A DNA stretch of 64,000 nt from contig JBAZPO010000005.1 of assembly GCA_041648175.1 (NCBI GenBank), positions 101,724 to 165,723 of the forward strand, read 5' to 3'. The stretch comes from Desulfobaccales bacterium. Lineage in GTDB: Bacteria > Desulfobacterota > Desulfobaccia > Desulfobaccales > 0-14-0-80-60-11. Positions 5,471 through 44,384 of this stretch are shown here, piece by piece. Position numbers and translations under genes: made by a program. The first letter of the stretch is position 1, and each line of letters begins with the position of its first letter. The notes beneath the pieces were generated by a model, which saw only the letters and a list, made by a program, of their open reading frames with translations, was not told the DNA's origin and searched no databases.

Positions 5471-5480
5471 GGTTCACCCC

Positions 5481-5900
5481 TCACGCAGGCGGAGCCTTGG
5501 GGTTGGTGGGATCAGCGAAGGAAGCGAAAGCAGTCTCATCGTGGATGGTCCGCATATACTTGATCTTGCCGCCCTCCACGCGAAAATAATTCGCCCCCAC
5601 CACTTCGCGATCCGGGTTATTCTTGTAGGCTATGGGCGTGCCGGCCCGGTTGGCCGCCTGGCACTGCCAGATGACTGCCGCCTCATTGCCTTCAACCACG
5701 ATGTGTTTGGGAATCATCTGAAACTTGCTGTAGCCGTAACTGATGGCGCCGATGGCCCCTTTGAGCACGTCGATCCCTTCGAAGTGGCCGGCCAACTGCT
5801 CATCGCCGGAGACGTCGTCCGTGAACAGGGTCAGCCAGTCATTCCAAGCGCTGCGATTGACGCAGTCATAGTATTTCTCGATCACTTCTTTGGTGGTCAT
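5481..5900 (-). CDS. NTF2-like / SnoaL-like small protein
   Basis: 139 aa. Opens with TTKEVIEKYYDCVNRSAWNDWLTLFTDDV and ends in a beta-rich C-terminus, as in SnoaL/ketosteroid-isomerase-like folds. Assigned by pattern only. Confidence 0.65.
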   Translation of the reverse strand: MTTKEVIEKYYDCVNRSAWNDWLTLFTDDVSGDEQLAGHFEGIDVLKGAIGAISYGYSKFQMIPKHIVVEGNEAAVIWQCQAANRAGTPIAYKNNPDREVVGANYFRVEGGKIKYMRTIHDETAFASFADPTNPKAPPA

Positions 5901-5982
5901 CGTTATCTCCTTGGGGGTTCAACCTCCTAACCATGACCGCACACTGTCCCGGTGGCCATAGCCAATCCCGTCAGCCATGCGA

Positions 5983-6276
5983 CTACGCCGCGGGCCCTCG
6001 AGGCCTGCGCCGGGGCACGTTATAGGCAGCGGAGAAAGCATCCGCGGCATCTTCGAAGATGGGTACCAAGTCGTTAATCAGGAAGTCGGGGTCGGGCAGC
6101 GGGTGGCCGGCAAGCCCCCAGTATCCCTGCTTCACCTCTTCGATCACCACATAGATGTAAGGCCGGGCGGCTTCCAGGGTCGCGGTGCAAAAGGCATCAG
6201 TCAGCGCTTTAACCAGCGCCCTCTTCTGTTCCTCAGGAAAGAAGTTCTCGATAATTTTGACATTGATGATTGGCAT
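5983..6276 (-). CDS. Tautomerase-superfamily protein (4-oxalocrotonate-tautomerase-like, Pro-1)
   Basis: Starts MPIINVKI, which gives the catalytic N-terminal proline after Met removal. Beta-alpha-beta length matches, with a C-terminal extension. Confidence 0.7.
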   Translation of the reverse strand: MPIINVKIIENFFPEEQKRALVKALTDAFCTATLEAARPYIYVVIEEVKQGYWGLAGHPLPDPDFLINDLVPIFEDAADAFSAAYNVPRRRPRGPAA

Positions 6277-6301
6277 GGCTTCGACCTCTCGTTTTGGTGA
6301 T

Positions 6302-6329
6302 GATCAGCTTTCAGCGATCAGCTTTCAGC
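6302..6329. repeat. Two perfect tandem copies of the 14-mer GATCAGCTTTCAGC
   Basis: Read directly. An inverted relative, gctgaaagctgaaagctgat, lies at 6969..6988. Both sit in intergenic spacers inside the 11-gene cluster. Confidence 0.8.
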
Positions 6330-6454
6330 TTATAAATAAACTAAGCAGCCAAAGACGGTGCGCGGTGCGCACCCTGCACTACTTTCAGTTTTAAGCAGCA
6401 AGTCAGCCGAAGCACCAGGTGAGCCATTATGAATTACTGCTCACTGCTTACTTA

Positions 6455-6859
6455 TCAAGACCAAAAGGCATCGTATTGGGCCGTGCCGTCGCCGAAAATG
6501 GCGCCTCGGCCTTCGATGACTTTGCCGTCCCGCCAGCGCAGATAATGAATTACATTGATGTCCAATTTCCGGTTAACGTCTCCGGCCCGGTTCCCCACGT
6601 TGTGAGTTACGTCGGCGGAGGCATTCTCGCTGGTCATGATCGATTCCCGCTCCATAAAGAAGCTGTTGCCGGACAACCGCCCGACCTCCCCCATGAAGCC
6701 CAAAAAACCATCCAGGCCGCGCTTTAAGCCCGAGAGGGGATTGTGGCCGGGCACGAGCCAGATCATATCGTCTGCCCAGTACTGGCGAATTCTCTCCCTA
6801 TCGCCAGACGCCAGGGCCTCATAAGCCTGTATAACCAGTTCCGGGGTGACCTGTGCCAT
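6455..6859 (-). CDS. NTF2-like / SnoaL-like protein, paralog of 7007..7492
   Basis: Shares the motif W-x-V/L-PG-x-H/N-PLSG-x-K-x-G with the next gene (IWLVPGHNPLSGLKRG versus VWNLPGRHPLSGTKHG). Confidence 0.7.
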   Translation of the reverse strand: MAQVTPELVIQAYEALASGDRERIRQYWADDMIWLVPGHNPLSGLKRGLDGFLGFMGEVGRLSGNSFFMERESIMTSENASADVTHNVGNRAGDVNRKLDINVIHYLRWRDGKVIEGRGAIFGDGTAQYDAFWS

Positions 6860-6968
6860 ATGTCCTCCTTATTTAAGTAGCCATCAGCGGTCAGCTAAAG
6901 CACGGGTGTAGTAAGCGATTTAGAAATCTTGCAATGCTTACTCTTTTCATTGCTTTCATACTGTTTTT

Positions 6969-6988
6969 GCTGAAAGCTGAAAGCTGAT
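6969..6988. repeat. Inverted relative of the GATCAGCTTTCAGC repeat
   Basis: gctgaaagctgaaagctgat is the reverse complement of atcagctttcagctttcagc. Confidence 0.7.
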
Positions 6989-7006
6989 TGGGTGATAGCT
7001 GACCTC

Positions 7007-7492
7007 CTAATCCGCCAGGCGGTCTGGGATCGGTTTATAGCGGTAAACAGCGCAAAAGAAGTTGTCAACCGCGTACTGGTCGCTGATGTAAACTTGCACT
7101 CGGGCGATCCGTCCGTTTTGGATCTGATAATGGGTGCAATTATAGGCGTTAAGAGCGACCTGAGTTTCGTTGCCGGAAGCATCCCGCACCGTCGTTGTGC
7201 CATGCCCGCGATGGACTTCCACCACCGTACTTGCCCCGAAGGTATCCACACCGGTGTTCGGGTCGGCTGCTGGGTCTAATGTGACCTGGATACCTGCCTT
7301 CACCAACTGAGAGAAAAAGGCTAAAACTTCGTCAGCACCGTGCTTGGTGCCCGACAGGGGGTGGCGGCCAGGCAGGTTCCAGACCAGATCCGGCGCAAAA
7401 ATTTCCCGGCGGATGGTCTCCATATCGTTTCTGTTGAAGCACTCGTACATTCTTTGGACCAGGGCCATATTAGGGTTGACCGTGTCTGCCAT
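7007..7492 (-). CDS. NTF2-like / SnoaL-like protein
   Basis: Track ORF starts at 7516. ATG 7492 (MADTVNPNMALVQRMYECF) has a GGAAGGAGGGAAG SD and is preferred. Paralogous to 6455..6859. Confidence 0.7.
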   Translation of the reverse strand: MADTVNPNMALVQRMYECFNRNDMETIRREIFAPDLVWNLPGRHPLSGTKHGADEVLAFFSQLVKAGIQVTLDPAADPNTGVDTFGASTVVEVHRGHGTTTVRDASGNETQVALNAYNCTHYQIQNGRIARVQVYISDQYAVDNFFCAVYRYKPIPDRLAD

Positions 7493-7562
7493 ACTTCCCT
7501 CCTTCCGGTTTCTCAAGGCGCATAACCATGCGCAGATGGTTGGTGATTGATCTCATCGACCG

Positions 7563-8030
7563 CTACAGGGGTATCGACCCCGGCATCGGCCGGAGTTCTT
7601 GGACGACATAGCGCCGGATCACCGGCTGGCCAGATGATGGCGAACGGATCATGTCCCATAGCTGGTAAGCATCAAAGCCGAGCCATTCGCTGCGAGGCGC
7701 CGCCGGACGCCAGCGGCGGGCCTGCCAATTGACCACCACATCGACCACGGCCTTACCTGCCTCCCAGGTGGTGCTGACCCTGGTGACAATGTGCACCTCG
7801 TCAAAGAAGATCCGGATAACCCCTTCATACCAGTTCCGGAAAGCTGCAACTCCGCTGATACTGCCTTCAGGAAACTGCATTTCCAGGCCCTGTTCCGCCA
7901 CCATGGACTGCAACTCCTCCCAAGGGGCATGAATATCAAGTTTGCGGTACCATGCTGCGACAAAGGCCTCGATTTCCGCCTGGGATAAAGGCTCGCCCGA
8001 GATTGCAGTTGATGTTCGCCTCTTAGCCAT
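7563..8030 (-). CDS. NTF2-like small protein (more divergent)
   Basis: 155 aa. AEIEAFVAAWYRKLD...FRNWYEGVIRIFFDEVH follows the helix-then-cone-beta pattern of NTF2-like proteins. Lower certainty than the neighbours. Confidence 0.55.
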   Translation of the reverse strand: MAKRRTSTAISGEPLSQAEIEAFVAAWYRKLDIHAPWEELQSMVAEQGLEMQFPEGSISGVAAFRNWYEGVIRIFFDEVHIVTRVSTTWEAGKAVVDVVVNWQARRWRPAAPRSEWLGFDAYQLWDMIRSPSSGQPVIRRYVVQELRPMPGSIPL

Positions 8031-8055
8031 GTTTCCCTCTTAATGCCGGCTACGG

Positions 8056-9762
8056 CTAGCTTTGCGTTACCGGCAGCGGCACGCTGCCATCGACCACAAG
8101 GTTGATCAGGAAGGGTCCATCATGGTCCAACATGGCTTGAATCGCCGGGGCGATTTCAGCCGGTTGCGCGACACGGACCCCCGGCACTCCCATGGCTTTG
8201 GCCAGACCGACGAAACCCAGGTCCGGGTCGCGTAAATCAAAACAATCCGGAAAGGACACCGGCAAATCCTGCGGTTTGAGCCCCTTCGCCTGCCAGTAAT
8301 CTTGCAGATTAATCTTGAGTAAGCGGTAGCTGTGATTGTTGCAAATGACGAATTTGGCATTGATACGGTGATGGGCGGCAGTCCAAAGGGCCTGGATGGT
8401 GTACATCGAGCCCCCGTCACCGGTTAAGCCGATGACGGTGCGTTCGGGGTGCGCCAGTTTGATACCCAGAGCCCCAGGAATGCCGACCCCCAGAGAACCG
8501 CCGCGGGTCTGAAAGAATTGGCCGGGCAGATCGAGCGTCAACCAGCGGGTGAGCTCAGGTGAGTGGGTCAGCACCTCATCAAAGATAATGGCATCCTTGG
8601 GCAGCCGACGGCCCAGTTCCTCGGCGAAGGCCGACATGTGCAGCGGGACGGCATCCCGCACCTTGGCGTCTCTGGCTCTGGCATCTGCTGCAGCCCGGAG
8701 GTTGGCATCGCTTAGGGCTCGCCCCCGGACAGCCGCGGCGTTCCGCTGCACCGGTGTGGTGAGATCGGTTACCGCGTCAGCGAGTAACCTCAGGGTCAAC
8801 TTGGGGTCACTGACCAAACCGATGGTGACGGGATGGTTCTTGGCAATCTCATAGGCGTCGAGGTCGATGTGGATCAGCTTGGCGCCTGGCTTGAACGGGC
8901 TGGCCAGAGATGGAAAAACCTCTGGAAACACATAAGTGCCGCAGATGATAACCACGTCGGCATCAGCGACGTGGCGCGCGCTGGCGTAGCCGAACATATG
9001 ACCGGTGAGGCCGCAGTAGAGGGGATGGGATTGGGGGAGGTTGACCTCCGAGGAGTTCACCCCCCAAACCCCTGCGCCCAAGACTTCGGCCAATTGCGCC
9101 AGTTCAGCCTGCGCACCCGAGCGGGAAACACCGTCGCCCATCAGTATTAAAGGGTTCTCAGCCCGGCAAAGCATCTCGGCCGCGGCCGCAATGACCGCGG
9201 GCTCGGGCACCACCCGGGTCGTCGGGACTACGGTGGGTATAACCGGCTCGTCATTCGGTGCATCAAGAATGTCTTGGGGGACGGCCAAAAATACCGGCCC
9301 CGTCGGCGGGGTGGCAGCCATTTTGATGGCTCGGCGCAATAGGCGGAGCAAACTGCCAGCATGGACAACCCGGGCCGCATACTTGGTCACCGGCCGCGCC
9401 ATATCCACCAGGTTCGCCGACATCTGGGCATTCATGGCGTCATAAGCGATCCCGGCTTCCCCAGCTATCACCACCAGGGGCGCGTGCCCCCGGAAGGCCT
9501 GGTAGATCATGCCAATGGCATTACCCAGGCCAACGCCGTCATGGAGTTGGACTATTGCGGGTTGCTGGGTGGCCCGGCAATATCCGTCGGCCATGGCTAC
9601 CGCGATGGTTTCCTGCAACGCCAGAATGTACCGGACGTCGGGGAAGCGGGTCAGGGCGTCGATCAGACCTTCTTCGCTGCTTCCGGGGTTGCCGAACATA
9701 TATCGAATACCGTCAGCCCGCAGCTGCTCCAGAAGCTTTTCGTGACCGGTTTTCCGAGTCAT
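8056..9762 (-). CDS. Thiamine-diphosphate-dependent enzyme (benzoylformate-decarboxylase / acetolactate-synthase-like)
   Basis: N-terminal LLEQLRADGIRYMFGNPGSSE Pyr domain. C-terminal GLTGDGGSMYTIQALWTAAHHRINAKFVICNN ThDP-binding motif (GDG...NN). Confidence 0.9.
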   Translation of the reverse strand: MTRKTGHEKLLEQLRADGIRYMFGNPGSSEEGLIDALTRFPDVRYILALQETIAVAMADGYCRATQQPAIVQLHDGVGLGNAIGMIYQAFRGHAPLVVIAGEAGIAYDAMNAQMSANLVDMARPVTKYAARVVHAGSLLRLLRRAIKMAATPPTGPVFLAVPQDILDAPNDEPVIPTVVPTTRVVPEPAVIAAAAEMLCRAENPLILMGDGVSRSGAQAELAQLAEVLGAGVWGVNSSEVNLPQSHPLYCGLTGHMFGYASARHVADADVVIICGTYVFPEVFPSLASPFKPGAKLIHIDLDAYEIAKNHPVTIGLVSDPKLTLRLLADAVTDLTTPVQRNAAAVRGRALSDANLRAAADARARDAKVRDAVPLHMSAFAEELGRRLPKDAIIFDEVLTHSPELTRWLTLDLPGQFFQTRGGSLGVGIPGALGIKLAHPERTVIGLTGDGGSMYTIQALWTAAHHRINAKFVICNNHSYRLLKINLQDYWQAKGLKPQDLPVSFPDCFDLRDPDLGFVGLAKAMGVPGVRVAQPAEIAPAIQAMLDHDGPFLINLVVDGSVPLPVTQS

Positions 9763-9829
9763 CGTAGCAACCCTCCCCCTGGTCGGCCGGGATGGTGGTG
9801 GTTGGGACCATTGCTATCCAGCAATTGGG

Positions 9830-10675
9830 TCACCACCCGTAGCGCCTCAGACCCCGTTCCAAGGCTGCCACCACCATCTCGCCGGTGAGATAAGAGTCAG
9901 GCGTGGAGCGACCGGTAATGAACGGATAGTCAACGATCACCGAGGTTTCCCGGCCAACGTTGCCATGGTAACCACCGTTCGGACCGGTGGCATCCCGCAA
10001 AATATATTCCAGAGGATATGGGGGCGGTCCCATATTGAAGTCCAAGAACTTATCCCGGGCCACCATAAAGCCGGTGCCATCCAGGTAGTCATACTCTTTA
10101 CAATGTCCGGTAACGTGCTTGCCCCAGATGATGCTCTTGCGGTCATCGAGATTGCGGGCAAAGGCGAGACAGGTGACGCCGTAGCACTCCGCCGCCACCG
10201 GCTTGTCGAATCTCAGGAAACCGAAGATCAGATCATGCACCCGGTGGTTGTTGGCCAGGTCCACGAGAGGTCCGCTCCCGCCCACGATCAGCAGGGCGTC
10301 GTATTGCTGCACTTGCTCCTGGGCCTTGGCCACATCCCGGTAGTAAGCCTCCCACTTGCGCAGGACATCGGACGCGCTCCAGTAAGGCTGCATGGGGAAC
10401 CAGGTAGAGAGGTTAACCGGGTTATCCAGGCGGGGGTTGCCCGGGTCATCAATAGCTTGCACCTTCTTCGCCATTTCCGGACTTGTGACTGACCGGCCCA
10501 AGGGCGGATCGACGTAACTGGCGTCTTTGCTGACGCTGATGGCCACGGGCCGCTTCCCGGTGGGCGTGGCAAAAACCGTCGCATAGCCGGCTGCGTCGAA
10601 GGTTTCCATGGGCCCAATTAGTTCTTCGCCCCAAAATCCCCATTCCGAGAGCACGATCAGGATCTTTCCACTCAT
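9830..10675 (-). CDS. DJ-1/PfpI-like (class I glutamine-amidotransferase-fold) protein, long form
   Basis: KILIVLSEWGFWGEELIGP opening, LLIVGGSGP, and nucleophile-elbow-like VAAECYGVTCL. GGGAGGG SD. Confidence 0.7.
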   Translation of the reverse strand: MSGKILIVLSEWGFWGEELIGPMETFDAAGYATVFATPTGKRPVAISVSKDASYVDPPLGRSVTSPEMAKKVQAIDDPGNPRLDNPVNLSTWFPMQPYWSASDVLRKWEAYYRDVAKAQEQVQQYDALLIVGGSGPLVDLANNHRVHDLIFGFLRFDKPVAAECYGVTCLAFARNLDDRKSIIWGKHVTGHCKEYDYLDGTGFMVARDKFLDFNMGPPPYPLEYILRDATGPNGGYHGNVGRETSVIVDYPFITGRSTPDSYLTGEMVVAALERGLRRYGW

Positions 10676-10680
10676 ATGAA

Positions 10681-11322
10681 TCAGCCCTCCCTCGCCGACA
10701 AGTTTAAAATCTGTTGAGCAATCGCCAGGATAAACGGCAGCACCTCATGCCAGGTGTGCCCCGTCACCAGGTCGCGGTCTACCACTACGCCCGCGTTTTC
10801 CGCATCAGGTGGTATATATTGAGCCCCGCAATTCAACACATCCGCCAGCATCACTTCATGGCAGATCACCTTGCGCCCTTTAAGCAACTCCGGGTTGGGA
10901 GTCAGAATCCACAGCCCGTGGCACAGCGCCCCTTTGATAGTTCTGGGGTTAGCCATGGCCCGGGCAAAAAACTGCACCGCCGGGGCGGACCGGACCATAT
11001 CGGCCGAGAACGGTTGTCCTGCGGGCCGCTCGAAATAACGCAACCGCACGCTGGTGTAGTTGGCCGCCATGATGACCGCGGCGTACTCATCCATGTTGAT
11101 TTTTTGAAAATCTTTGTCCACCTCCAATGTGACCGGGGTGTTGCCGGCGTGCTCCACGTCGCTGACAAAGGTTTGACTGGGCTGGTTCCAGAGGCGAGAC
11201 ATGAAATGGACTTCCGCTCCCAGGGCGGCAAAGCCATAGCGATAGGCCTCGATCTCCCCCGGGACGAATTCGCTCTCCACCAGCACCGCGATCTTTTTCC
11301 CTTCCAGCATCCTGCTGTTCAT
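10681..11322 (-). CDS. DJ-1/PfpI family protein
   Basis: KKIAVLVESEF, AVIMAANY, and IKGALCHGLWIL (Cys-His nucleophile elbow). Track start 11337 is a TTG. ATG 11322 has a GGAGAGAGG SD and forms an ATGA overlap with the upstream stop. Confidence 0.8.
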   Translation of the reverse strand: MNSRMLEGKKIAVLVESEFVPGEIEAYRYGFAALGAEVHFMSRLWNQPSQTFVSDVEHAGNTPVTLEVDKDFQKINMDEYAAVIMAANYTSVRLRYFERPAGQPFSADMVRSAPAVQFFARAMANPRTIKGALCHGLWILTPNPELLKGRKVICHEVMLADVLNCGAQYIPPDAENAGVVVDRDLVTGHTWHEVLPFILAIAQQILNLSAREG

Positions 11323-13313
11323 GTTGCCTCTCTCCAAATTGGCCGGAATTCCACCACGACCTGTGACCCGAGTTCATCGGCAGCCAACTCCACCCGGAAA
11401 TTGTCCGGGGAAAAACTGGTCCGCGGGATGCCGTTCACGGTAATGCCGGATATTTGCACAGTACCGGGGGCGTAAAAGTCGGGGAGCACATTGAGCGAGG
11501 TGCAGCCGCATTGCGCATCCGGACAGAAATACAGGCAGAAGTTGGAGTCGGTCGTATCCTTGCCTTTCACGAACGAGCGGATGTAGATGTGTGCCAGATA
11601 GTTCAACTCAAAGCTATGATAACCCGCTACTGAATGTCCGCCTTTTTGGGCATAGGGTCCCCTCTCTACCGGCTGGCCTTCAGCGGTCACCCGGAAGAAG
11701 ATGCCGCGGTTATCATGGTCCAGGAAGAATATATTCCAGAACGCCGCCATCTCCCGGGCCAGCGTCAGGTATCTGGCATCATTGGTGGCCCCGTGCAGGA
11801 TCAGGTACGCCAAGATACCCTGCTCCTGCTGCCAGAAATCCTTGGTGTTGCCCCAGACGAACTCAAGGGGTAATTTATCCGGCGTCCGGCGCTCGACTAC
11901 GTCGAAGCAGCCTCCCCGCACCTGGTCTAAACCATAGATTGCCATCTTATCCGCCAGCTTTTTCGCCAGACTCAGAAAATCGTTGGCAAGCTGTTCGTGC
12001 TGTTGGGCGTTGTTATTCTCGCCCTGGCGGCGGTTCTCGACTGCCAGGTAGCGGTAGTAATTGGCGACCCTGGTCAGATTCCAGGCGATCTTCAGGTTGT
12101 GCCCCACGACGGCCCGGTTCTGCTGCCAGCGCCAGTGATGATCCGGGGTCCAATCCGCATGGAACCGCTCGTTGACATAGTGCGAATCCGGGTCTGGAAA
12201 CTTCTCCAGGATCAGCCTGGCAGTGGTGTCCAGGATTTTGCGGCAGGTGCGCAGAAGCTGCTCCATTTCGTGAGGCGGCGGGTCCAGGGCCAGAACGAGG
12301 TTGACCAGATAGGCGGGAATGTGGTCCCCGATGGAGTTCCAGTTTTTCCGCAACCGATTATCGCCCAGCGCCTCCACATCCGGCCGCAACGTGGCGTAGT
12401 CGATATGAGAGAAATACCCCCCTAATCCACCGTAACCGTTTTCGGGCGAATCCAGATAATGGGTCTGGAAGACGTTCACGGTCCGCTCAATGTCCTCCAA
12501 CACTTCCCAATCCTGGGTAATCCGATAGTACTGGGCCATACCGGCCAGGGCGTAAATCTGTTCATAGAGCGGGATCGTGCCGTAGTCGTCAGCATTCTCC
12601 GAGGCCATGATGATCTTGGCTCCGATGTCTTTCTTGCGCTTGCCGAAGTTCCAGAAACAGCGTCGGCCATCATGACTCAGACTGCGGAAGGTTTCCCGCT
12701 GATACTTGATGCCTGCCTTAGCAGCCAACCGAAACCGCTCCTGGCCGGTCAAGAGATAAGCGGAAGACAATCCGTAGATCAAGCGGGATAGGGTGGCGCA
12801 CTCCTGGATATTGTTGTCGCCCACGGGCAGGCCCAGGATGTTTAGGTTGGTCCGGTACAGTGCCGCGAAATCGTCCAGTTGATAGGTGCGCCGGTCGCCG
12901 AACAGGTCGTCCAGCCACTCCTCCCCCAGGCGGGTGATCTGGTTGATCCACCAGTGGGTTTCCTCGAAGAGGTATTTTCCCGGTTCGGAATGCATCAAGG
13001 TGATGAAGCGAGCGTCAAAGCGCCTCTCATCCTCGTGCTCCATATAAATTCCCTGGATGACGACGAGGGCATCTTCATGAAGGTATTTGCGCACCATCTC
13101 GGATGGACCGGCGTCTGGATTATAGTTCGGAGGAGCAGTCACGCGGTCGCGGTTCAGTTCGTCTAAATTGGTAAGAACCCCGAACACAGTCTGAGGACTC
13201 ACATAGATCAGGTAACCGTCCCCGCTGCGACAACGGAGGGTGAAAGACGCTTCTACCGGGTTAACACTCGTCACCGTTCCCATCAGTGTCGTGCTCTGCG
13301 TTAAATATTTCAT
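11319..13313 (-). CDS. AGE-superfamily (N-acylglucosamine-2-epimerase-like, alpha/alpha-toroid) protein with an extra ~110-aa N-terminal domain
   Basis: Repeating helical-hairpin motifs (ECATLSRLIYGLSSAY, YEQIYALAGMAQYY, NWNSIGDHIPAYLVNL, HNLKIAWNLTRVANYY, QQEQGILAYLILH) as in AGE/YihS-type isomerases. First gene of the minus-strand cluster. Confidence 0.65.
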   Translation of the reverse strand: MKYLTQSTTLMGTVTSVNPVEASFTLRCRSGDGYLIYVSPQTVFGVLTNLDELNRDRVTAPPNYNPDAGPSEMVRKYLHEDALVVIQGIYMEHEDERRFDARFITLMHSEPGKYLFEETHWWINQITRLGEEWLDDLFGDRRTYQLDDFAALYRTNLNILGLPVGDNNIQECATLSRLIYGLSSAYLLTGQERFRLAAKAGIKYQRETFRSLSHDGRRCFWNFGKRKKDIGAKIIMASENADDYGTIPLYEQIYALAGMAQYYRITQDWEVLEDIERTVNVFQTHYLDSPENGYGGLGGYFSHIDYATLRPDVEALGDNRLRKNWNSIGDHIPAYLVNLVLALDPPPHEMEQLLRTCRKILDTTARLILEKFPDPDSHYVNERFHADWTPDHHWRWQQNRAVVGHNLKIAWNLTRVANYYRYLAVENRRQGENNNAQQHEQLANDFLSLAKKLADKMAIYGLDQVRGGCFDVVERRTPDKLPLEFVWGNTKDFWQQEQGILAYLILHGATNDARYLTLAREMAAFWNIFFLDHDNRGIFFRVTAEGQPVERGPYAQKGGHSVAGYHSFELNYLAHIYIRSFVKGKDTTDSNFCLYFCPDAQCGCTSLNVLPDFYAPGTVQISGITVNGIPRTSFSPDNFRVELAADELGSQVVVEFRPIWREAT

Positions 13314-14115
13314 AGTTCGCTCCGTAGTTGGAACCCTGGTTCCCTGAAGGACTTTTTATGTAACCATTGATGCTATTAAGTTTAAGTAATTTAGCAGATA
13401 ATTAAGCATGGCTGAACAAGATGTCAATGATAATTAACAAAGTTATTACTTTGAATAAATTAATTATGTAATATCTAATTTATTTAATTTAATAAAAAAA
13501 TAATTGATATAAACGCTGGTTCGAAATTGGTCTCAAGGGCGTTTTTGAAGCTATATTTAAATTAAATTGCTTATAATCATCAATCACATTCATCGTAAAT
13601 TATATAAAGAAAGATATCTTTTTATTCTGGTTATAACGATATGTACGGCTACATATCAGATCAATTAGGGTTTTCCCTATATGAGGATGATCAAAGTGAT
13701 CATTTCATATGGCCAAAATGATCATAAGGAGATCGACTGGATGGTCCACAGTTTGAAAAATCTGTCTTTTCCGTAGTGGTGGGATTGTTAAGCAGAAATC
13801 ACAGCCAGAGGACTCTGAACGCTTATTGCTCAGACTCATTGACAATATTTGGCGGAATGCTTAATTTTTAGCTGACTTTATCTCCCATAATTCTTAAGGT
13901 GAGGGAGGTGACGTAATGAAGGGAAAGAGGCTGATTTAACGGGTTGCCTTTCTGGCCTTTCTGCTTCATCTCTTTTACCGCCGCATCAACCCCTTCAGAG
14001 GGGCGCCTCGTTTTATACCCCACCCATGATTATATTGATTAGGGCAAGGATCGCCGCTAAGGTGAAAAAGACAAAGGGTTGGCGATCTTGAAGAATTTTG
14101 AGGAGTGGAGGAGAA
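13314..14115. promoter_or_regulatory. AT-rich ~0.8-kb divergent intergenic control region
   Basis: Visibly AT-rich compared with both flanks, with no ORF of 60 aa or more. Separates the divergent starts at 13313 (-) and 14116 (+). Contains three TGATCA hexamers within ~45 nt (about 13681..13730). Confidence 0.5.
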
Positions 14116-14358
14116 ATGACTGCCTCGTTTCGACAAGAAAAACTTTCCGGCGTGCTAGGAATTCTCTGTTTCTTGTTGTTGAGCTACCCTTTATTGAAAA
14201 TTTTTAATCACGACGCCTTAATTACAGGAGTCCCACTCTTATTTTTGTACATCTTCGGGGTCTGGGTTTTGGCGATAATCGGTCTCTATGGAATGAGCCG
14301 CAGGTTTGCTTCTCCGGAGCTGGCAGGCCAACAGGAGCCGGAAGGCCATGATCAGTGA
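14116..14358 (+). CDS. Small two-TM membrane protein, translationally coupled to the sensor kinase
   Basis: GGAGTGGAGGAG SD before ATG 14116 (track start 14098 is a TTG). Two hydrophobic helices (VLGILCFLLLSYPLL and LLFLYIFGVWVLAIIGLYG). Its stop overlaps the kinase start by 11 nt. Confidence 0.55.
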   Translation: MTASFRQEKLSGVLGILCFLLLSYPLLKIFNHDALITGVPLLFLYIFGVWVLAIIGLYGMSRRFASPELAGQQEPEGHDQ

Positions 14359-17300
14359 ATGGTCTTTAGCACTCGTCGCCTTTGGCTATCTCTTGCTGCT
14401 CTTTGCCATCGCCTATTATGGCGACCGGCAACGGGCCCGGGGCAAGAGCATTATTGCCAATCCCTATATCTATGCCCTTTCTCTGGCAGTTTATTGCACT
14501 GCCTGGACTTTTTTCGGCAGTGTCGGCAAAGCGGCCACCCAGGGTGTCACCTGCCTCACTATTTATCTCGGCCCCACCCTCATAGCCTTTACCTGGTGGT
14601 TCGGCCTGCGTAAGCTGCTGCGCATCTGCAAGGAAAATAACCTGACCACCATGTCGGATTTCCTGACGCTGCGGTACGGCAAGGGGGCCTTTCTGGGGGT
14701 GCTGGCCACCATAGGCATGCTCCTGGCCATAACTCCCTATATCGGCCTGCAGCTTAAGTCCATCTCCGACACTTTCAATGTCCTGGCTTATAAAGAAGTT
14801 TTTCCTCCCGTCACCACCCCGGTTTATCAAGATACCGCCTTTTATGTGGCCATTCTGCTGTCCGTGTTCGGTATTTTGTTCGGGGCCCGCCATTTGGACC
14901 CCACTGAGCGCCACGAAGGCCTGGTAGCGGTAGTGGTGTTTGAGTCCCTGATCGAACTTCTGGCTTTTACCAGTTTAGGCCTCCTGGTGACGTTCGGTCT
15001 TTTCACGGGTTGGGGAGAAATTTTCACGCGTATCCGGCAGAGCCCCGAATTTCAGCAGCTTCTCCTGGTGAACACCGGGCCTCAGAACAGCTATTCTTTG
15101 TTGCTGGTGCTCACCCTTCTGGCCATGGGCGCCATCCATTTTCTTCCCCGCATGTTTCATATGGCGGTAGTAGAGAATACCAATGAAAGGCACATTCTCA
15201 CGGCGCTCTGGCTATTTCCCCTCTACCTGTTGTTGATGAACCTGTTTGTCATGCCCATCGCCTTCGGCGGACTGCTGCTGGGTCTCCCTCCGGAAACGGC
15301 CGATACCTTTGTCCTGCGCATTCCTTTGCAAACCGGACATCCTTATTTTGCCCTTCTGGTCTTTCTGGGGGGGCTGTCGGCCTCCACCGCTATGGTGGCG
15401 GTGGCCTCCATCGCCGTCACCACCATGATCCTCAATAGCCTGGTGATGCCGCTGGCCATCCGGCTAAGATTGCAAGAGCGTATCACCCCCCATCTTTTGA
15501 CTATCAAGCGGGCCGGCATTTTTTTCCTCATTTTTTTGGGATATTTTGGCTATCACCTGGTATTCCCTACCGTCATGCTGGTGGACATCGGACTGATCGC
15601 CTTTTGCGGGGTGATGCAATTGGCGCCGGCCATGATCGGGGCCTTGTACTGGCGGGATGCCACCAGGTGGGGGGCAATGGCTGGTTTGGCATCAGGTTTT
15701 CTTGTCTGGGCCTACACCCTGGTCTTCCCCTATCTGGTTGAAGCAGGGTGGTTCCCTATCAGTATCTTATCGGAGGGACCCTTCCACCTGGCTTTTCTCA
15801 AGCCCACCGCTTTCTTAGGGCTGACCGGTCTGGATCGGCTCTCCCATGCCTTTTTCTGGTCCTTGTTTTTTAATGCCGGCACTTTTGTCACCGTCTCATT
15901 GCTCACGGTGCCCAGTTCCGTGGAATTGGAGCAGGCCCGGCGGTTTGTCGGGGTGTTTGAACAGGAACGAGAACGACCCATAGAGAAGCGCTTAACGTAT
16001 TTGCCGAGCCTGGAGCAGCTGACGGAATTTATGGGGAAGATCATCGGCCACCGGAAGGCCGCCCAGGCACGACGAGCCTTTCTCCGGGGGGTGACGACTC
16101 CTGAAGCCGAGTGGGGTGACAAGGAAAAGCTCCAGTTGGCGGATTTTATTGAGCGCACCATTGCAGGCTCCATCGGACCAGCGGCGGCCAAGGTCATAGT
16201 GGAAGGCTACCTCTCCTCAATGGGCTCCAAGATGGAGGACGTTTTTGACCTCTTCGGACGGATCTCCAGCTCTTTAGAAGAAAGCGAACAACAATTAAAG
16301 AGACGGGTAAGTGAACTCTCGGTGCTCTACGAAGCGGCCCGCCGCCTGGCTTCAACGTTATATTTTCCGGAAATCCTGGATGGAGTGCTGGGGGTGCTGG
16401 TGGAGAAATTAGACGTTGAAAGATGTGCCGTGCGGCTCTTGGACGAAGATGGCCTTCTGCATTTGAAAGCTTTCCGGGGCCTTCCGCCTGAGGTTCGGGG
16501 GCAGGTGGGAAAGCCCGATCCAGCTTCTCTATTGGGGGAATGTTTGTCGAGCTCCCAGGTAATTTCGGTGCCTGATTCCGCCGCAGTGGCTGATCGCCTC
16601 CAGGGACTGGTGGAAGAAGAAGCTTTGACTTCCTTGGTTTTGGCCCCCATCATTGCAGAAACCCTGACCCTGGGGGTATTGACCGCGGCCAGCAGTCAGA
16701 AGGGTTTTTTTACCAAGGAATACATTCAGTTCTTTCAATCGCTGGCCGGGCATTTGGGACTGGCGGTGCGGAGCGCCAACATGGAGGAGGCGCTGCGCCT
16801 GGATGAGTCTCGTCTTGAGGCGGTCTGGCAACTCAGCCAGATGACCAAGGCCACGCTGCAAGAGATTACCGATTTCGCCCTGGAGGAAGGAGTCCGGCTT
16901 ACCAAAAGCAAGATCGGTTACCTGGCCTTCATGAACGAGGACGCAACGGTCCTCACTATGCAAGCCTGGTCTAAGACCGCCATGGCGGAATGCGCCGTGG
17001 CGGATAAACCCTTTGTTTTTCCTGTGGAGACCACGGGGCTCTGGGGTGAAGCCGTGCGCCAGCGGCGGCCCATCATTACCAATGATTATGCCGCGTTTAG
17101 TCCTTATAAGAAAGGCTATCCCGCAGGTCATGTCGAAATCCGGCGTCATCTGAATATTCCGGTATTCGACGGGAACCGCATCGTGGTGGTGGCTGGCGTG
17201 GGCAACAAGGAGGAAGAATATGATGAATCGGACGTCCGTCAGCTGACTTTATTGATGAACGGCCTGTGGTGGCAGATAAAACGCCAGCAAACCGAAAAGG

Positions 17301-18370
17301 CCCTGACCGCTGCAGTGGAGCGGGGTGTTTACTTTCAAAAGCTTTTAATTCATACCTGCATGGATGGCATCGTGGCAAGTGATATGGAAGGCACCATTCG
17401 TACATTTAACGAAACGGCTGCCAAAATCCTGGGTTATGAACCCGAAGAAGTCCTCGGCAAAATGAATGTCAGTGAACTCTATGCGCCGGGTCAACTGCAG
17501 GAAATCGATACCAAAATCCACGACTCTGCTTACGGCGGGGCGGGTATCTTAGAGAATTACGAAACCTGGATGCGGCATAAGGATGGCGCCCTCACGCCCG
17601 TCTGGCTTTCCGCCCGGGTGCTGTATGAAAATGACCGGGAAATCGGCATGATCGGCCATTTTAAAGACCTGCGCGAACGTAAGCTCATGGAAGAAGAACT
17701 CTTGCGGAATGAGCGCCTGGCCGTCTTGGGCAAAATGGCGGCCCACATAAGCCACGAAATTAAAAACCCTCTGATGCTTATTGGAGGATTTGCCCGCCAG
17801 GTGGTTAAGGATCCTACCTCCGACCCACTGAAGACTCAGGAAAAGCTTCAAATTATTGTCGATGAAGTTAGTCGCCTGGAAGATCTCCTCGCCGAGGTAG
17901 GAAGCTATGCCAAATTTTCGGAACCCCAAAAGCACCTGGGTAATCTCAATGACTTAGTTCGGGAAACCTGCCAGCGGCTGGAACCAAGCCTGCGCGAGAG
18001 TAATATTGAGCTTGCGTTGAGGCTCGACCCTGCACTCCCGGAGACCCAGTTTGATCCGGGCCATTTACGCCAGGTTATCTTGAATATAGCCAAGAACGGC
18101 ATTGAGTCCATGAGCGCCGGGGGGACCTTGACGGTCAGCACCGGTAAGCAGGATGGCCGAATATTCGTGAAAATTAGTGATACAGGCATGGGAATCCCCC
18201 CCGAGAGTCTGGAGAAAATTTTTCAACCCTTCTTTTCCTCCAAACCCAAGGGCAGCGGCCTGGGTTTGGCCATTTCCCAGAAAATAATCCAGGCGCATCA
18301 AGGTGAAATCGCCATCGAGAGTGAACCGCAAAAGGGGACCCAGGTAACCATCTTTCTAAGGGAAATATAG
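14348..18370 (+). CDS. Hybrid transporter-sensor: SLC5/sodium-solute-symporter-like membrane domain, STAC, GAF, GAF, PAS, HisKA, HATPase histidine kinase
   Basis: About 13 hydrophobic segments over the first ~520 aa. STAC-like stretch (LADFIERTIAGSIGPAAAKVIVEGYL). Two GAF-like regions, then PAS (CMDGIVASDMEGTIRTFNETAAKILGY). H-box AAHISHEIKNPL. G-boxes DTGMGIP and GSGLGLAISQ. Preferred start is ATG 14348 (MISEWSLALVAF). Confidence 0.9.
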   Translation: MISEWSLALVAFGYLLLLFAIAYYGDRQRARGKSIIANPYIYALSLAVYCTAWTFFGSVGKAATQGVTCLTIYLGPTLIAFTWWFGLRKLLRICKENNLTTMSDFLTLRYGKGAFLGVLATIGMLLAITPYIGLQLKSISDTFNVLAYKEVFPPVTTPVYQDTAFYVAILLSVFGILFGARHLDPTERHEGLVAVVVFESLIELLAFTSLGLLVTFGLFTGWGEIFTRIRQSPEFQQLLLVNTGPQNSYSLLLVLTLLAMGAIHFLPRMFHMAVVENTNERHILTALWLFPLYLLLMNLFVMPIAFGGLLLGLPPETADTFVLRIPLQTGHPYFALLVFLGGLSASTAMVAVASIAVTTMILNSLVMPLAIRLRLQERITPHLLTIKRAGIFFLIFLGYFGYHLVFPTVMLVDIGLIAFCGVMQLAPAMIGALYWRDATRWGAMAGLASGFLVWAYTLVFPYLVEAGWFPISILSEGPFHLAFLKPTAFLGLTGLDRLSHAFFWSLFFNAGTFVTVSLLTVPSSVELEQARRFVGVFEQERERPIEKRLTYLPSLEQLTEFMGKIIGHRKAAQARRAFLRGVTTPEAEWGDKEKLQLADFIERTIAGSIGPAAAKVIVEGYLSSMGSKMEDVFDLFGRISSSLEESEQQLKRRVSELSVLYEAARRLASTLYFPEILDGVLGVLVEKLDVERCAVRLLDEDGLLHLKAFRGLPPEVRGQVGKPDPASLLGECLSSSQVISVPDSAAVADRLQGLVEEEALTSLVLAPIIAETLTLGVLTAASSQKGFFTKEYIQFFQSLAGHLGLAVRSANMEEALRLDESRLEAVWQLSQMTKATLQEITDFALEEGVRLTKSKIGYLAFMNEDATVLTMQAWSKTAMAECAVADKPFVFPVETTGLWGEAVRQRRPIITNDYAAFSPYKKGYPAGHVEIRRHLNIPVFDGNRIVVVAGVGNKEEEYDESDVRQLTLLMNGLWWQIKRQQTEKALTAAVERGVYFQKLLIHTCMDGIVASDMEGTIRTFNETAAKILGYEPEEVLGKMNVSELYAPGQLQEIDTKIHDSAYGGAGILENYETWMRHKDGALTPVWLSARVLYENDREIGMIGHFKDLRERKLMEEELLRNERLAVLGKMAAHISHEIKNPLMLIGGFARQVVKDPTSDPLKTQEKLQIIVDEVSRLEDLLAEVGSYAKFSEPQKHLGNLNDLVRETCQRLEPSLRESNIELALRLDPALPETQFDPGHLRQVILNIAKNGIESMSAGGTLTVSTGKQDGRIFVKISDTGMGIPPESLEKIFQPFFSSKPKGSGLGLAISQKIIQAHQGEIAIESEPQKGTQVTIFLREI

Positions 18371-18403
18371 TAATCATTAGAGGTTCTTGCAAAAAGCCGT
18401 TTT

Positions 18404-18483
18404 GTCATCCTGAGCGAAGCGAAGGATCTCGTATTTTCACCCACTTATGAGATTCTTCGGTCGCTTCGCTCCCTCAGAATGAC
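18404..18483. repeat. Imperfect inverted repeat (GTCATCCTGAGCGAAGCGAAG ... CTTCGCTCCCTCAGAATGAC)
   Basis: Arms read directly and are complementary with a few mismatches. Located 34 nt after the kinase stop, so it may also act as a terminator. Confidence 0.7.
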
Positions 18484-19522
18484 AGGCAGGGAGATATTTG
18501 CAAGGGGCTCATTATAAATGGGAAAATTGCCAAGGTATTGCTACCGTGCCAGGACCTGGAGTTCTGGTAAGGGGCTGGGGAATTTGAAATGACTTATGAG
18601 CCTCTTGCAATAATAATCTTCTTACAGTGGAAACCTTATAGGGGTATTTAAAAATCGCCGGTAGCACAGGCTTTTCAGCCTGTGCTCATATAGGCTAAAA
18701 CCTGCGACTGCATAATGTCCGGCAATTTTGCAAGAGGCTCTTATAATAATACCAGCTTGAAAAGCCTGTCATCTTTCTCATCATTGTTGGATGCCTCGCA
18801 GTCCAGAGTTTATGCTGTCTCCATGCCTTGCCGGGATAAAAGCGGATCACGGTTTTCCAACCTGAGAAAAATGGGGAGGCTCCAGGCGTTCCACCCGTGC
18901 CGTGTCCCGGCACAAGGATGCCGGCGCCCCATTAATCCCTTGATAATACTGGCTAAGTTTTGCGAAAGCCGAATATTTACCCCGGGACCAGCGCGGGACA
19001 AGCGCGTGACAACCCTGGCGCCGCCTCGACCGGAACGCGCTTGCACGCGGGTTTAGACCGGGTATATGGCGAGGGCGCCTCGGCAATATCCCGGCACATG
19101 TGCCGGGTTTGCCCGTCCAATCGGCCTGCGCCCGGCATTTTCAACGATTTTTGGGGTAGTTTTGAGGGGGTAAAAGCCGTTAAAAAACCATTTTTCTCTA
19201 TCATTTTGAGCTAAACGCAGGCTCTTAGCTCGCTTCCATGAAACAGCTTTAAACCCGATTTAGGGGGATTTAAAAATCAGCCAGCGGCATAAATCTATGG
19301 CAAACGCTATATGTCAAAGCTTGAATGATTTCATTGCCTCCGGGCACAATCAATGCAGACCTGGCGAATCTGCTGCAGAAACCAGCAAAGATGCGATATA
19401 ACTCATAGTAAGGTTATTGTAGTTCGCGTATAATTTATTCTCTAATTCTATCTTGATATATATTGCGAGGCTGTCGGAAAAGGATTGAGCTCAGCTAGTT
19501 TCCCTCCTATCCATTGATTTGA

Positions 19523-21328
<1,806 letters not shown>

Positions 21329-21515
21329 CAGTCCTCGGTGGTTATCATGAATGGTTGACAGTTAGGCCCTTCGTTCAGCCAGCCAGGATAGGAACGCTAT
21401 CTCGTTGAAGAAAACGCCCAGAAACATTTCCATTTTATGACCTCTTGATCCGAGGTTATACGTGATTAAGTTATTCGTAATATTCAATCATTTCGAACTT
21501 TATTAAGAGGACGTG

Positions 21516-23912
21516 ATGAAATCCCGGAAAATTGAGTTTCCATTCAAGGGCAGAATGAGCCTGAGGCCACTGCTGGATTTCTGGGAACGCTTATTGGCCG
21601 AAGGCAAAGGCGGGATGAATGCCTTGGGGCCGGTTATCCGCAAAAAGTTAGAGAATACCCCTGAGCTACGGGAACCCATCGAGGACCTCACCATCCTGGA
21701 AAATCACCAGGACTTCATCGATCTGTTGATGAGCGTGGTTTTCCCGCCGGCGTTTTGGGAGAGCGATTGCGCCGCGGCCTTCGTGCCTTTCCAGTTTACC
21801 GGGTTCTATGCCACACCGCTTTTCAAGACCCTGTTTAAAATGGAAGGACAAGGTTTTACGCCGCAATTGAACATCGACCCCCATCAGTGGCAGTGGGGGC
21901 GGGTCCTCAAGGCCTATATTTATATCCTGAATAAATTCTACGGCATCGACCTCACCTGGGATTATCCCCTGATTGCCAAAGCTCAATGCCCCAAAACCGG
22001 ATTGGATCGGTTTTTTAATATCGTCTTGGATCCAAAATTCCTGGAAATCAAAGTGCTCGGAGAGCCCAGGAGTTTGACGGAAGCAGACCGGAGCCGGCTC
22101 CTGGCTAACGTCAGTGACCTGAAATTGTGGATGGAACTGATACCCCCGGAAAACTTTGAATTTGAGGGCTTTGGCGTTTTCAGGGCTGCGGATGTGACCT
22201 CTCGCGAGATGTTATCGGCTCTCCAGGGGGACCTCTTCGAAAAGGAAGCAATTTTTCAGCGGGATGGTTTTGCCGGGCTCCAGGAAAAATTGCAGATCTA
22301 TCTGCAAGAGAAAGACCTAACCCTGGGCTTGGCCGCCATCCGGGGTGAACAGATTCTCATCCTGCCGCATGCCCATAACCAGGCGGAAACGACGACCTGT
22401 GTTCTGCAGAATGCGACGCACTACCAACGAAGTGAATTTAAAGGATCAATTTTTTCCCAGGCGATGGATCAGGGCGAGCCGCTGGTCGTTGAAGACCTGC
22501 ACTATTACCCTAAGAGCACGATCCTGGAAGAGCGCATGCTCGAGCATGGGTACCGGAGTATATATGTCGCTCCCCTGCTCTACCAGGACAGGCTCCTGGG
22601 AACTTTGGCGCTCAAATCAACCCGCGCCGGAGCGCTGAACGCCTTGAACACGGCCAACCTGCTCCCGGTGCTGCCGTTGTTTGCCGTGGCTTTGAATCGC
22701 AGCCTGGAGCAACTGAATCAAAAAATTCAGGCTGTCATCAAAGAGGAGTTCACCGCGATCCACCCCTCGGTGGAATGGCGCTTTCAGCAGGCAGCCCTGC
22801 ACTATATCCAGCATAAGGACGAAGGGGTTGCAGCCCTGGAACCCATTGCGTTCCATCAAGTCTATCCCCTTTTCGGCGTTTCGGATATCCGGATGTCCAG
22901 CGACCATCGCAACGGCGCAATCCAGGCCGATCTCATCGAACACTTCCGTCTGACCAGAGAAATCCTGCAGCTCGCCTATGACCACCGGCCTTTGCCGATT
23001 CTGGCGGCGTTCAGCCATCGCATCGACAAGCAGATCAAAAGGTTGAACATTGGCCTGAATGCGGGTGATGAGACCACCAAACCACTTTTCATCCAGCAGG
23101 TGATGGAACCCATTTTTGACCAATTGGCAAACTTCGGCGCCCCGGTTGCCGAGAGGATAGCCTCCTACCGGGCCGCTTTGGATCCCGAGATGAAGACCAT
23201 CTACCGGAGCAGGCGAGACTTTGAGGACAGTCTCAAGCTCATTAATGAAACTATTGCAGCGTATCTTGATCAGGAGGAAGCCAAGGCGCAGGAATATTTC
23301 CCCCACTATTTTGAAAAACTCAAGACCGACGGGGTGGAACACACCATATATATCGGTGCGAGCATGGCAGAGAGCGGGAATTTCAATCCCATGTACCTGA
23401 AAAATCTGCGCCTGTGGCAACTCATGGTTATGTGTGAGGTAGTGCGGCGTACCGAGGAGATTAAAAGCAGTCTGTCGGTACCTTTAGAAACCACGCACCT
23501 CATTCTGGTCCAGGATTCGCCGCTCTCGATCTTTTTTAGCCCGGATGAGCGGCACTTCGAAGTGGCAGGGGCTTACGATATCCGCCATGAGATCATCAAA
23601 AAACGCATTGACAAGGCGGTAATCAAAGGCGCCTCCGAGCGGCTTACGCAACCGGGGAAAATTGCCATTGTGTACTCTCAAAAACAAGAGGGCACGGAAT
23701 ACCTTGAATATATTGATTACCTCCAGGCTGCCGGCTATCTGAAGGCTGAGACGGAGGATGTGGAGTTGGAGGACTTACAAGGGGCCCAGGGATTGAAGGC
23801 CCTGCGGGTCACGGTGGACCCACGCGCCTCGCGTGCGCAACAGCAGCCTCTTCCGGAAATCGTCACCACCGCCGTAAAGGCGCTGCCCAAGCGAGCCAAC
23901 GTATCTTCCTGA
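21516..23912 (+). CDS. Large uncharacterised protein with one central GAF-like domain
   Basis: GAF-like segment EPLVVEDLHYYPKSTILEERMLEHGYRSIYVAPLLYQDRLLGTLALKS. I recognise no kinase, cyclase, HD, DNA-binding or transmembrane motif. AAGAGGA SD before ATG 21516. Confidence 0.8.
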   Translation: MKSRKIEFPFKGRMSLRPLLDFWERLLAEGKGGMNALGPVIRKKLENTPELREPIEDLTILENHQDFIDLLMSVVFPPAFWESDCAAAFVPFQFTGFYATPLFKTLFKMEGQGFTPQLNIDPHQWQWGRVLKAYIYILNKFYGIDLTWDYPLIAKAQCPKTGLDRFFNIVLDPKFLEIKVLGEPRSLTEADRSRLLANVSDLKLWMELIPPENFEFEGFGVFRAADVTSREMLSALQGDLFEKEAIFQRDGFAGLQEKLQIYLQEKDLTLGLAAIRGEQILILPHAHNQAETTTCVLQNATHYQRSEFKGSIFSQAMDQGEPLVVEDLHYYPKSTILEERMLEHGYRSIYVAPLLYQDRLLGTLALKSTRAGALNALNTANLLPVLPLFAVALNRSLEQLNQKIQAVIKEEFTAIHPSVEWRFQQAALHYIQHKDEGVAALEPIAFHQVYPLFGVSDIRMSSDHRNGAIQADLIEHFRLTREILQLAYDHRPLPILAAFSHRIDKQIKRLNIGLNAGDETTKPLFIQQVMEPIFDQLANFGAPVAERIASYRAALDPEMKTIYRSRRDFEDSLKLINETIAAYLDQEEAKAQEYFPHYFEKLKTDGVEHTIYIGASMAESGNFNPMYLKNLRLWQLMVMCEVVRRTEEIKSSLSVPLETTHLILVQDSPLSIFFSPDERHFEVAGAYDIRHEIIKKRIDKAVIKGASERLTQPGKIAIVYSQKQEGTEYLEYIDYLQAAGYLKAETEDVELEDLQGAQGLKALRVTVDPRASRAQQQPLPEIVTTAVKALPKRANVSS

Positions 23913-44375: not shown

Positions 44376-44384
44376 GGAATCACC

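Follow-up and report, generated by a model that had tools for sequence, protein, structure and literature searches.

The DNA analysed here, referred to as the window, is a stretch of 64,000 nucleotides (nt) from a Desulfobaccales bacterium (GenBank assembly GCA_041648175.1, contig JBAZPO010000005.1, positions 101,724 to 165,723 of the forward strand). It carries a gene for a small membrane protein of 80 amino acids (aa), which overlaps the gene for a 1340-aa sensor histidine kinase (HK) with a transporter-like N-terminal half. A first-pass annotation, made from the sequence alone, had described this kinase as an orphan of the architecture SLC5-STAC-GAF-GAF-PAS-HK. The elements of the gene pair are listed below, numbered from the first letter of the window.

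14107-14113, plus strand: Shine-Dalgarno sequence GGAGGAG of the small open reading frame (ORF), read in the sequence, 2 nt ahead of the ATG at 14116.
14116-14358, plus strand: small-subunit gene from ATG to TGA, 80 aa, two-helix product, candidate member of the CbrX family (ORF list).
14348-14358, plus strand: 11-nt overlap between the stop of the small ORF and the start of the kinase gene, ATGATCAGTGA, read in the sequence.
14348-18370, plus strand: sensor HK gene from ATG to stop, 1340 aa (ORF list, Pfam, alignment to PDB 10ED_A, orthologs).

These coordinates reproduce the overlapping ORF pair as first annotated. As read in the sequence, the kinase start codon has only a weak Shine-Dalgarno sequence. 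More than 100 full-length orthologs of the kinase were found at 66-94% identity, Desulfobacca acetoxidans among their sources. In the three ortholog contexts that were read (L002, L003/L004 and L005), an ORF of 65-78 aa lies upstream of the kinase gene, and its product is 41-55% identical to the window small protein. Because there are so many full-length orthologs and the small ORF is conserved at the protein level, the pair is real and not a chance ORF. Upstream of it, between the small ORF and a divergent gene of 664 aa, lie 800 nt of AT-rich DNA with no called gene (13314-14115); the GC content of the 12-14 kb bin is ∼49%, compared with 55-60% in most other bins of the window. Scans of 13000-20000 with Rfam and for a sigma-54 promoter pattern, sigma-70 promoters and terminators gave nothing convincing.

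The domains of the kinase are as follows.

14348-15937, plus strand: SLC5/LeuT-fold transporter-like domain, ∼residues 1-530, with 13 transmembrane helices (alignment to 10ED_A, Foldseek).
16010-16222, plus strand: STAC, ∼residues 555-625, four helices (alignment to 10ED_A up to chain residue 593, query residue 623; structure model).
16370-16768, plus strand: first GAF domain (GAF1), residues 675-807 (Pfam GAF/GAF_3).
16850-17269, plus strand: second GAF domain (GAF2), residues 835-974 (Pfam GAF_2).
17342-17677, plus strand: PAS, residues 999-1110 (Pfam PAS_9/PAS_3/PAS).
17729-17914, plus strand: HisKA/DHp, residues 1128-1189, with the phospho-acceptor His1136 (codon 17753-17755; Pfam, H-box HEIKNP).
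18053-18361, plus strand: HATPase_c, residues 1236-1338 (Pfam; N, G1, F and G2 boxes).

The membrane half was compared with PDB entry 10ED, the 1.9 Å cryo-electron microscopy (cryo-EM) structure of the Pseudomonas putida CbrX-CbrA SLC5-STAC complex published in 2026 (PMC13022988). Residues 6-623 of the window kinase align to chain A of this structure (10ED_A) with E=5e-71 and 32% identity. In an AlphaFold model of residues 1-650 (predicted local distance difference test, pLDDT, 68), four helices at 555-566, 568-581, 591-609 and 611-624 correspond to STAC; pLDDT there is ∼60-77. When the N-terminal model was searched against the PDB with Foldseek, the best 35 matches were all SLC5/SSS transporters (SGLT1/2, NIS, CHT1, SMCT1, SiaT, vSGLT and DUR3) with TM-scores of 0.5-0.7, and other LeuT-fold families ranked below them. 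The 10ED_A alignment, the SLC5-only top fold matches and the four-helix bundle at 555-624 together place the window kinase in the SLC5/STAC sensor-kinase family, and the CbrA-type assignment of the first-pass annotation is upheld.

Pfam gave no match to the N-terminal 651 aa even at E≤10. This is no argument against SLC5, since genuine Pseudomonas CbrA proteins likewise lack a precomputed SSF match; some orthologs of the window kinase do have a precomputed PF00474 match. A different N-terminal family was considered on account of the empty scan and rejected in view of the CbrA precedent and the strong structure-based evidence.

In the cytoplasmic half, Pfam returned GAF, GAF_2, PAS, HisKA and HATPase_c in that order, and no rival N-terminal family. 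The domain order and complete kinase core first read from the sequence are thereby confirmed. All catalytic motifs are intact: H1136, the N-box at 1246, G1 at 1278, F at 1292 and G2 at 1302. The best NCBIfam matches of the PAS-HisKA-HATPase part are AtoS (E=3.5e-82) and ZraS (E=7.5e-53), both under the equivalog cut-offs. Kinases of the AtoS, ZraS and NtrB type differ from the window kinase in their periplasmic or other sensor domains and in the NtrC-type regulators encoded next to them.

GAF1 resembles a Geobacter GAF structure (PDB 2qyb, E=1.6e-10) and the PtsP GAF domain (3ci6, E=2e-5). It also occurs in shorter relatives of the kinase, namely 1022-aa paralogs, GAF-HK forms and forms with a PP2C phosphatase output (GAF-PP2C). 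Of 83 complete relatives, only the three 1340-aa orthologs have GAF2. From this distribution, GAF1 is inherited from the wider subfamily, and the second GAF domain and the PAS domain are specific to the Desulfobaccales 1340-aa clade. The double GAF module had been put forward as an extra feature of this kinase; that holds for the second GAF domain together with PAS but not for the first. The model of GAF1-GAF2 (pLDDT 82) shows two GAF domains with a long helix between them. In predicted fold and connecting helix it is like the tandem GAF modules of PDE2A/5/6 and CyaB2 (Foldseek E to 4e-16, TM-scores 0.6-0.66), but sequence identity to them is only 13-16% and their output domain is different. 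The string GNKEEEYDE in GAF2, read by eye, loosely resembles the NKFDE-type motif for binding of cyclic nucleoside monophosphates; it establishes no signature.

Two codons of the transporter-like domain stand out on alignment with CbrA.

14552-14554, plus strand: codon of Cys69, at the position of CbrA gate residue F71 (alignment).
14954-14956, plus strand: codon of Glu203, at the position of CbrA Lys196 in the Na2 site (alignment).

The histidine pocket of CbrA is lined by Y51, S53, W55, A56, F71, Y75 and F406. The window residues Y49, T51, W53, T54, Y73 and F419 align to Y51, S53, W55, A56, Y75 and F406, respectively. These pocket residues are invariant in every sub-family, whatever its output. 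They were rejected as a clue to the ligand, as they define the family. The position aligned to CbrA F248 was dropped because two alignments placed it differently. At the gate position, Phe is found in all 95 full-length orthologs, in CbrA and in 78 of 81 further relatives (the other 3 have Tyr); Cys occurs in the window protein only. Cys69 may be genuine strain variation or may stem from an error in the assembly.

Lys196 of CbrA occupies the Na2 site and is the proposed mediator of proton coupling. This Lys is kept in 62/62 relatives of ∼900 aa, in 9/9 PP2C forms, in 2/2 GAF-HK forms and in CbrA. Among the paralogs it is present at all three loci examined and in 11 of 14 proteins overall. In the 1340-aa clade, 77 of 95 orthologs have Glu, including the window protein with Glu203, and 18 retain Lys. 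The swap had been overlooked in the first-pass annotation. Glu203 co-varies with S52A, Q255L and Q269M. Since the co-varying positions are clade-wide substitutions only, the exchange of Lys for Glu appears to be a single lineage event; a charge-swap partner was sought among them, and no compensating basic residue was found. The exchange suggests that coupling differs from the proton mechanism of CbrA or has been lost; it may reflect a switch to another coupling ion or an end to transport.

The same substitutions can be read as signs that the SLC5 domain has become a non-transporting anchor or receptor, so that the true signals are cytoplasmic and enter through GAF1, GAF2 and PAS while the small protein does no more than stabilise the dimer in the membrane. 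Loss of the coupling Lys from most of the clade fits this, with nearby polar residues now hydrophobic, and so do the Cys at the gate of the window protein and the three added cytoplasmic sensor domains. CbrA that lacks its membrane domain and is over-produced still signals (PMC6591292), which also fits. However, the invariance of the six aligned pocket residues across the clade argues that ligand binding is kept. The Lys is retained by a minority of the orthologs and by most paralogs, and Glu could equally serve as a protonatable or cation-binding coupling residue. We regard a non-transporting SLC5 domain with purely cytoplasmic sensing as unlikely, though worth serious consideration.

To place the small protein, we scanned species-representative genomes with the kinase's N-terminal domain. 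At least 80 loci were listed, mostly relatives at 41-50% identity; the Desulfobaccales orthologs were gathered separately. The phyla and groups among the matches listed were Thermodesulfobacteriota, Desulfuromonadota, Burkholderiales, Alphaproteobacteria, Chloroflexota, Actinomycetota, Nitrospirota, Acidobacteriota and Bacteroidota. Under a simple rule based on position and hydropathy, 79 of 85 loci have a two-helix ORF that ends between -60 and +30 nt of the kinase start. Forty-nine of these upstream ORFs (that of the window and 48 from other loci) align without internal gaps and share the motif L-G-x-x-L-x-N-Y-P-x-L-x-x-F ... G-I-P-x-L-x-x-Y-L-F-x-x-W-x-x-x-I.

A profile made from the gapless alignment was searched against all six frames of 88 loci (1.15 Mb), which hold 14,512 ORFs of 40 aa or longer. 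Exactly one ORF matched in 86 of the 88 loci, always on the same strand and directly upstream of the kinase gene, and there were zero matches among the remaining ∼14,400 ORFs. The two loci without a match are the CbrA loci. The pairing of small protein and SLC5-STAC gene thus recurs in other genomes, and the supposed conservation of the small ORF is borne out at the protein level both among the orthologs and across phyla. As every one of the 86 non-CbrA SLC5-STAC loci has one upstream match, the small subunit appears to be a hallmark of the whole family and not the mark of a variant. The annotation had counted an obligatory-looking small subunit among the variant traits, and this part does not hold, because CbrA has the same arrangement as well.

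Searched against 1.84 billion proteins, a narrow profile of the small protein matched 1,037 cluster representatives, almost all of them 60-110 aa long. A protein identical to that of the window is present in a Desulfobaccales metagenome-assembled genome, annotated only as a hypothetical protein. No Pfam or NCBIfam model matches the small protein or its family, and PDB sequence searches with it returned no family. DUF485, DUF4212 and DUF997, tried as candidates for a small subunit of an SSS transporter, had no meaningful match with it.

The closest known counterpart by position is CbrX. The cbrX gene has 58 codons and a 17-nt overlap with cbrA, to which it is translationally coupled (PMC6591292). 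In PDB 10ED, its two-helix product is bound to TM3/TM8 (transmembrane helices 3 and 8) of the CbrA SLC5 domain (PMC13022988). CbrX was dispensable in the single growth assay performed. Compared with the 80-aa window protein, CbrX (58 aa) is only marginally similar in sequence. With hhalign, the small-protein profile matched CbrX with P=9.3e-5 and a probability of 59%. In a search of the PDB, the same profile placed 10ed_X at rank 7 of 177,635 (E=5.5), collinear over the full length. Comparison of the single sequences of the small protein and CbrX with phmmer gave no match. These results suggest a distant relationship to CbrX; the link is weak but in the right direction. We found no discussion of CbrX beyond Pseudomonadaceae in the searchable literature. 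The breadth of the small-protein family appears to be undescribed so far and is the most useful by-product of this analysis.

Over 79 loci, the small ORF and the following gene overlap in 13, abut in 17 and are separated by a gap of 4-60 nt in 49. Adjacency and the small protein are therefore conserved in the family, and the overlap itself is not. This variation bears on the idea that the small ORF is a mere translated leader which brings ribosomes to the kinase start and whose peptide has no function. In P. putida, CbrA is still translated when CbrX is frameshifted with its length unchanged (PMC6591292), and the 11-nt overlap and the weak Shine-Dalgarno sequence at the window kinase start would suit such a leader. 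However, the two genes are not overlapping in the 49 loci with a gap, the amino acid sequence is gapless with a fixed motif across phyla, the protein profile matches in 86/88 loci, and CbrX is seen physically bound to CbrA by cryo-EM (PMC13022988). We consider a leader without a functional peptide very improbable.

No regulator gene accompanies the pair. When every six-frame ORF of the window with 50 aa or more (656 in all) was searched with a receiver-domain (REC) profile, none matched, whereas the same profile recovered the Pfam-confirmed REC genes of related loci. Pfam searches of ∼32 large window ORFs found no Response_reg, Hpt or sigma-54 activator domain. The original statement that the 64 kb hold no response regulator, Hpt or receiver domain is thus confirmed. 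Nor is there a REC gene within 10 kb in the three ortholog contexts or within 8 kb in the paralog loci L006-L009. The window and the ortholog contexts have no neighbouring genes in common, so that no conserved linked regulator partner exists for the 1340-aa clade. A cognate regulator just outside the window, which would undo the orphan status, finds no support in these differing surroundings. That a regulator lies in a conserved position just past the sampled flanks, or that signalling needs no response regulator at all, is scarcely credible: related loci were read for 8-10 kb per side and the window spans 14 kb upstream and 45 kb downstream, but the contexts share no neighbour, and the motifs of DHp and CA are the canonical ones of kinases that hand phosphate on to a receiver.

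The relatives fall into the following architectures.

SLC5-STAC-(PAS)-HK, 900-980 aa, the majority: REC gene adjacent in nearly all, usually single-domain REC plus LuxR-type regulator.
SLC5-STAC-(PAS)-HK, exceptions: NtrC-type regulator in the Nitrospirota loci L071 and L087 and for CbrA; at L081 a REC ORF of the same size.
SLC5-STAC-GAF-HK, 1092-1133 aa, loci L012 and L014: REC gene and then REC-HK gene downstream.
SLC5-STAC-GAF-SpoIIE/PP2C, ∼1072 aa, nine loci: no regulator nearby.
Desulfobaccales short form, GAF-HK, ∼1022 aa: no regulator within 8 kb.
Desulfobaccales long form, GAF-GAF-PAS-HK, ∼1340 aa: no regulator within 10 kb.

An adjacent cognate regulator is an operon habit and not a property of the protein. 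Orthologs and paralogs aside, the HK domain of the window protein is closest to those of the Nitrospirota loci L088, L071, L081 and L087, and then to CbrA. At L088, the closest of the four, no regulator is adjacent in the stretch read; L071, L087 and CbrA have an NtrC-type regulator directly downstream (Pfam). Because the kinase core is similar to those of L071, L087 and CbrA and its best curated matches are AtoS and ZraS, the target regulator is probably an unlinked member of the NtrC family.

Several of these groups deserve a closer description. The short form is a second Desulfobaccales family (L006-L010, ∼1022-1027 aa, SLC5-STAC-GAF-HK without GAF2 or PAS). Its N-terminal half is ∼70% identical to that of the window protein, and the same small ORF lies upstream with a 1-nt overlap. 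Its neighbours are conserved, with genes for a MoxR-like AAA+ protein and a VWA protein upstream and LysE downstream. The nine ∼1072-aa loci (L013, L015-L019, L025, L036 and L050) are of Desulfuromonadales/Geobacteraceae type. GAF1 matched in 8/9 of them, and neither a kinase-core match nor a nearby regulator was found at any of the nine. Pfam was run on L016 alone, whose architecture is SLC5-STAC-GAF-SpoIIE (PP2C phosphatase), and all nine carry the same small upstream ORF. PP2C forms of this kind are probably behind the JGI name 'RsbU' given to orthologs of the window kinase, and one of these ∼1072-aa proteins may be the source of the Geobacter GAF structure 2qyb. In L012 (4539-9596) and L014 (5980-10702), the SLC5-STAC-GAF-HK gene is followed by genes for a single-domain receiver and for a REC-HisKA-HATPase protein, an arrangement that suggests a multi-step relay downstream of the transporter-fused kinase.

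The N-terminal domains of the GAF-HK and GAF-PP2C proteins from Thermodesulfobacteriota and Desulfuromonadota (L012, L014, L013, L015-L019) are 46-50% identical to that of the window kinase. They share with it the small upstream ORF and a homologous GAF1 after STAC. They differ in having a single GAF domain and no PAS, and the output of the PP2C forms is a phosphatase. An SSS+GAF+PP2C combination has been noted for Actinobacteria (PMC7918813).

The best-characterised relative is CbrA. Both proteins have a 13-helix SLC5 domain, STAC, PAS, DHp and CA and no fused receiver, and in both the kinase gene is overlapped at its start by a small two-helix ORF immediately upstream. The two have in common Y, W, Y and F in the pocket and a kinase core typical of the partners of NtrC-family regulators. 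In contrast, CbrA has 984-991 aa and no GAF domain, and NtrC-type cbrB lies directly downstream of cbrA. Given the missing downstream regulator, the Glu in place of Lys196, the length of 1340 aa with two GAF domains and the identity of only 32%, the window kinase is a relative and not an orthologue of CbrA. Histidine, the ligand of CbrA, cannot be assumed for the window kinase, because the pocket residues are common to the whole family regardless of function. The hybrid kinases CrbS/MxtR and RpuS, which serve acetate and pyruvate use (PMC5715377, PMC9100948), belong to the same transporter-fused sensor family with the SLC5-STAC-PAS-HK backbone. They have a C-terminal receiver and adjacent LuxR-type regulators; the window kinase has neither and carries two GAF domains in addition. 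The window system is therefore a known theme varied by a GAF-GAF-PAS stack, the lack of a linked regulator and the Lys to Glu exchange, and not a new kind of system.

Taken together, we think it reasonably probable that the pair encodes a CbrXA-type transceptor which combines a membrane solute signal with GAF/PAS inputs and phosphorylates an unlinked regulator. By analogy with CbrX on TM3/TM8 of CbrA, the 80-aa hairpin would insert in the membrane and pack on the SLC5 domain of the kinase, and it may aid dimerisation of two kinase chains. The SLC5 domain would bind, and perhaps transport, a small solute in its conserved LeuT-type pocket. In CbrA, STAC is docked under the transporter, and the conformational state of the window SLC5 domain would likewise be relayed through a docked STAC bundle. 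The signal would then run along a helical spine through the tandem GAF and PAS domains, which could add cytoplasmic metabolite or redox inputs. The HisKA/HATPase core is predicted to autophosphorylate on His1136, and the phosphoryl group would pass to a response regulator whose gene lies elsewhere in the genome and which is most probably a sigma-54 activator of the NtrC family.

Some points weigh against this transceptor model. Confidence in the N-terminal structure model is only moderate (pLDDT 68), the small protein is tied to CbrX only weakly by sequence (hhalign probability 59%), and the type of regulator is read from kinase-domain similarity. With Glu203 and the loss of polar S52 and Q269, the transporter may no longer transport. 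The membrane domain may also modulate the signal rather than sense it, since over-produced CbrA without this domain still signals.

A bolder proposal, which we put forward only tentatively, has two parts. The CbrX-like hairpin would be a universal, as yet unnamed third component, needed across phyla for assembly of the SLC5-STAC signalling dimer. The 1340-aa clade would have rebuilt the coupling site, with Glu for Lys and adjacent polar residues gone, and added a GAF-PAS stack, turning a proton-coupled transceptor into a differently coupled sensor or a pure multi-signal receptor that feeds an unlinked sigma-54 regulator.

Other parts of the window were also read. Upstream of the kinase locus, 3447-11337 on the minus strand holds small SnoaL-like, tautomerase and DJ-1/PfpI genes plus genes for a GMC oxidoreductase and a thiamine pyrophosphate (TPP) enzyme; none of them is shared with the other ortholog contexts. 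A malic enzyme gene at 19541-21328, with an N-terminal extension of ∼60 aa compared with the NCBIfam model, precedes a gene for a 799-aa protein (21513-23912, plus strand) whose single match is to part of a GAF domain (residues 306-394) and for which there is no NCBIfam family. At 38333-46417 on the plus strand, subunits I, E, C, A, B and D of a V/A-type ATPase are encoded in one operon. At 46908-48947 on the plus strand, a molybdopterin oxidoreductase is encoded in two same-frame ORFs split by one TGA at 47313-47315 ('HCARL*HSSTV'); it looks like a selenocysteine-containing alpha subunit of the formate-dehydrogenase type.

CbrA is the only transporter-kinase system with a structure so far. 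A probable distant homologue of CbrX in front of every sampled SLC5-STAC gene, whether the output is a kinase or a phosphatase, argues for the peptide as a core component of the signalling machinery. The conserved motif of the small protein (NYP...F, G-x-P, W50) offers residues for mutation, and the natural Lys to Glu swap at the coupling site could be used to probe the link between transport and signalling. The Desulfobaccales variant exemplifies how extra cytoplasmic sensors are stacked on one membrane input, and its kinase marks a conserved, unstudied nutrient-sensing pathway in acetate-oxidising sulfate reducers such as Desulfobacca.

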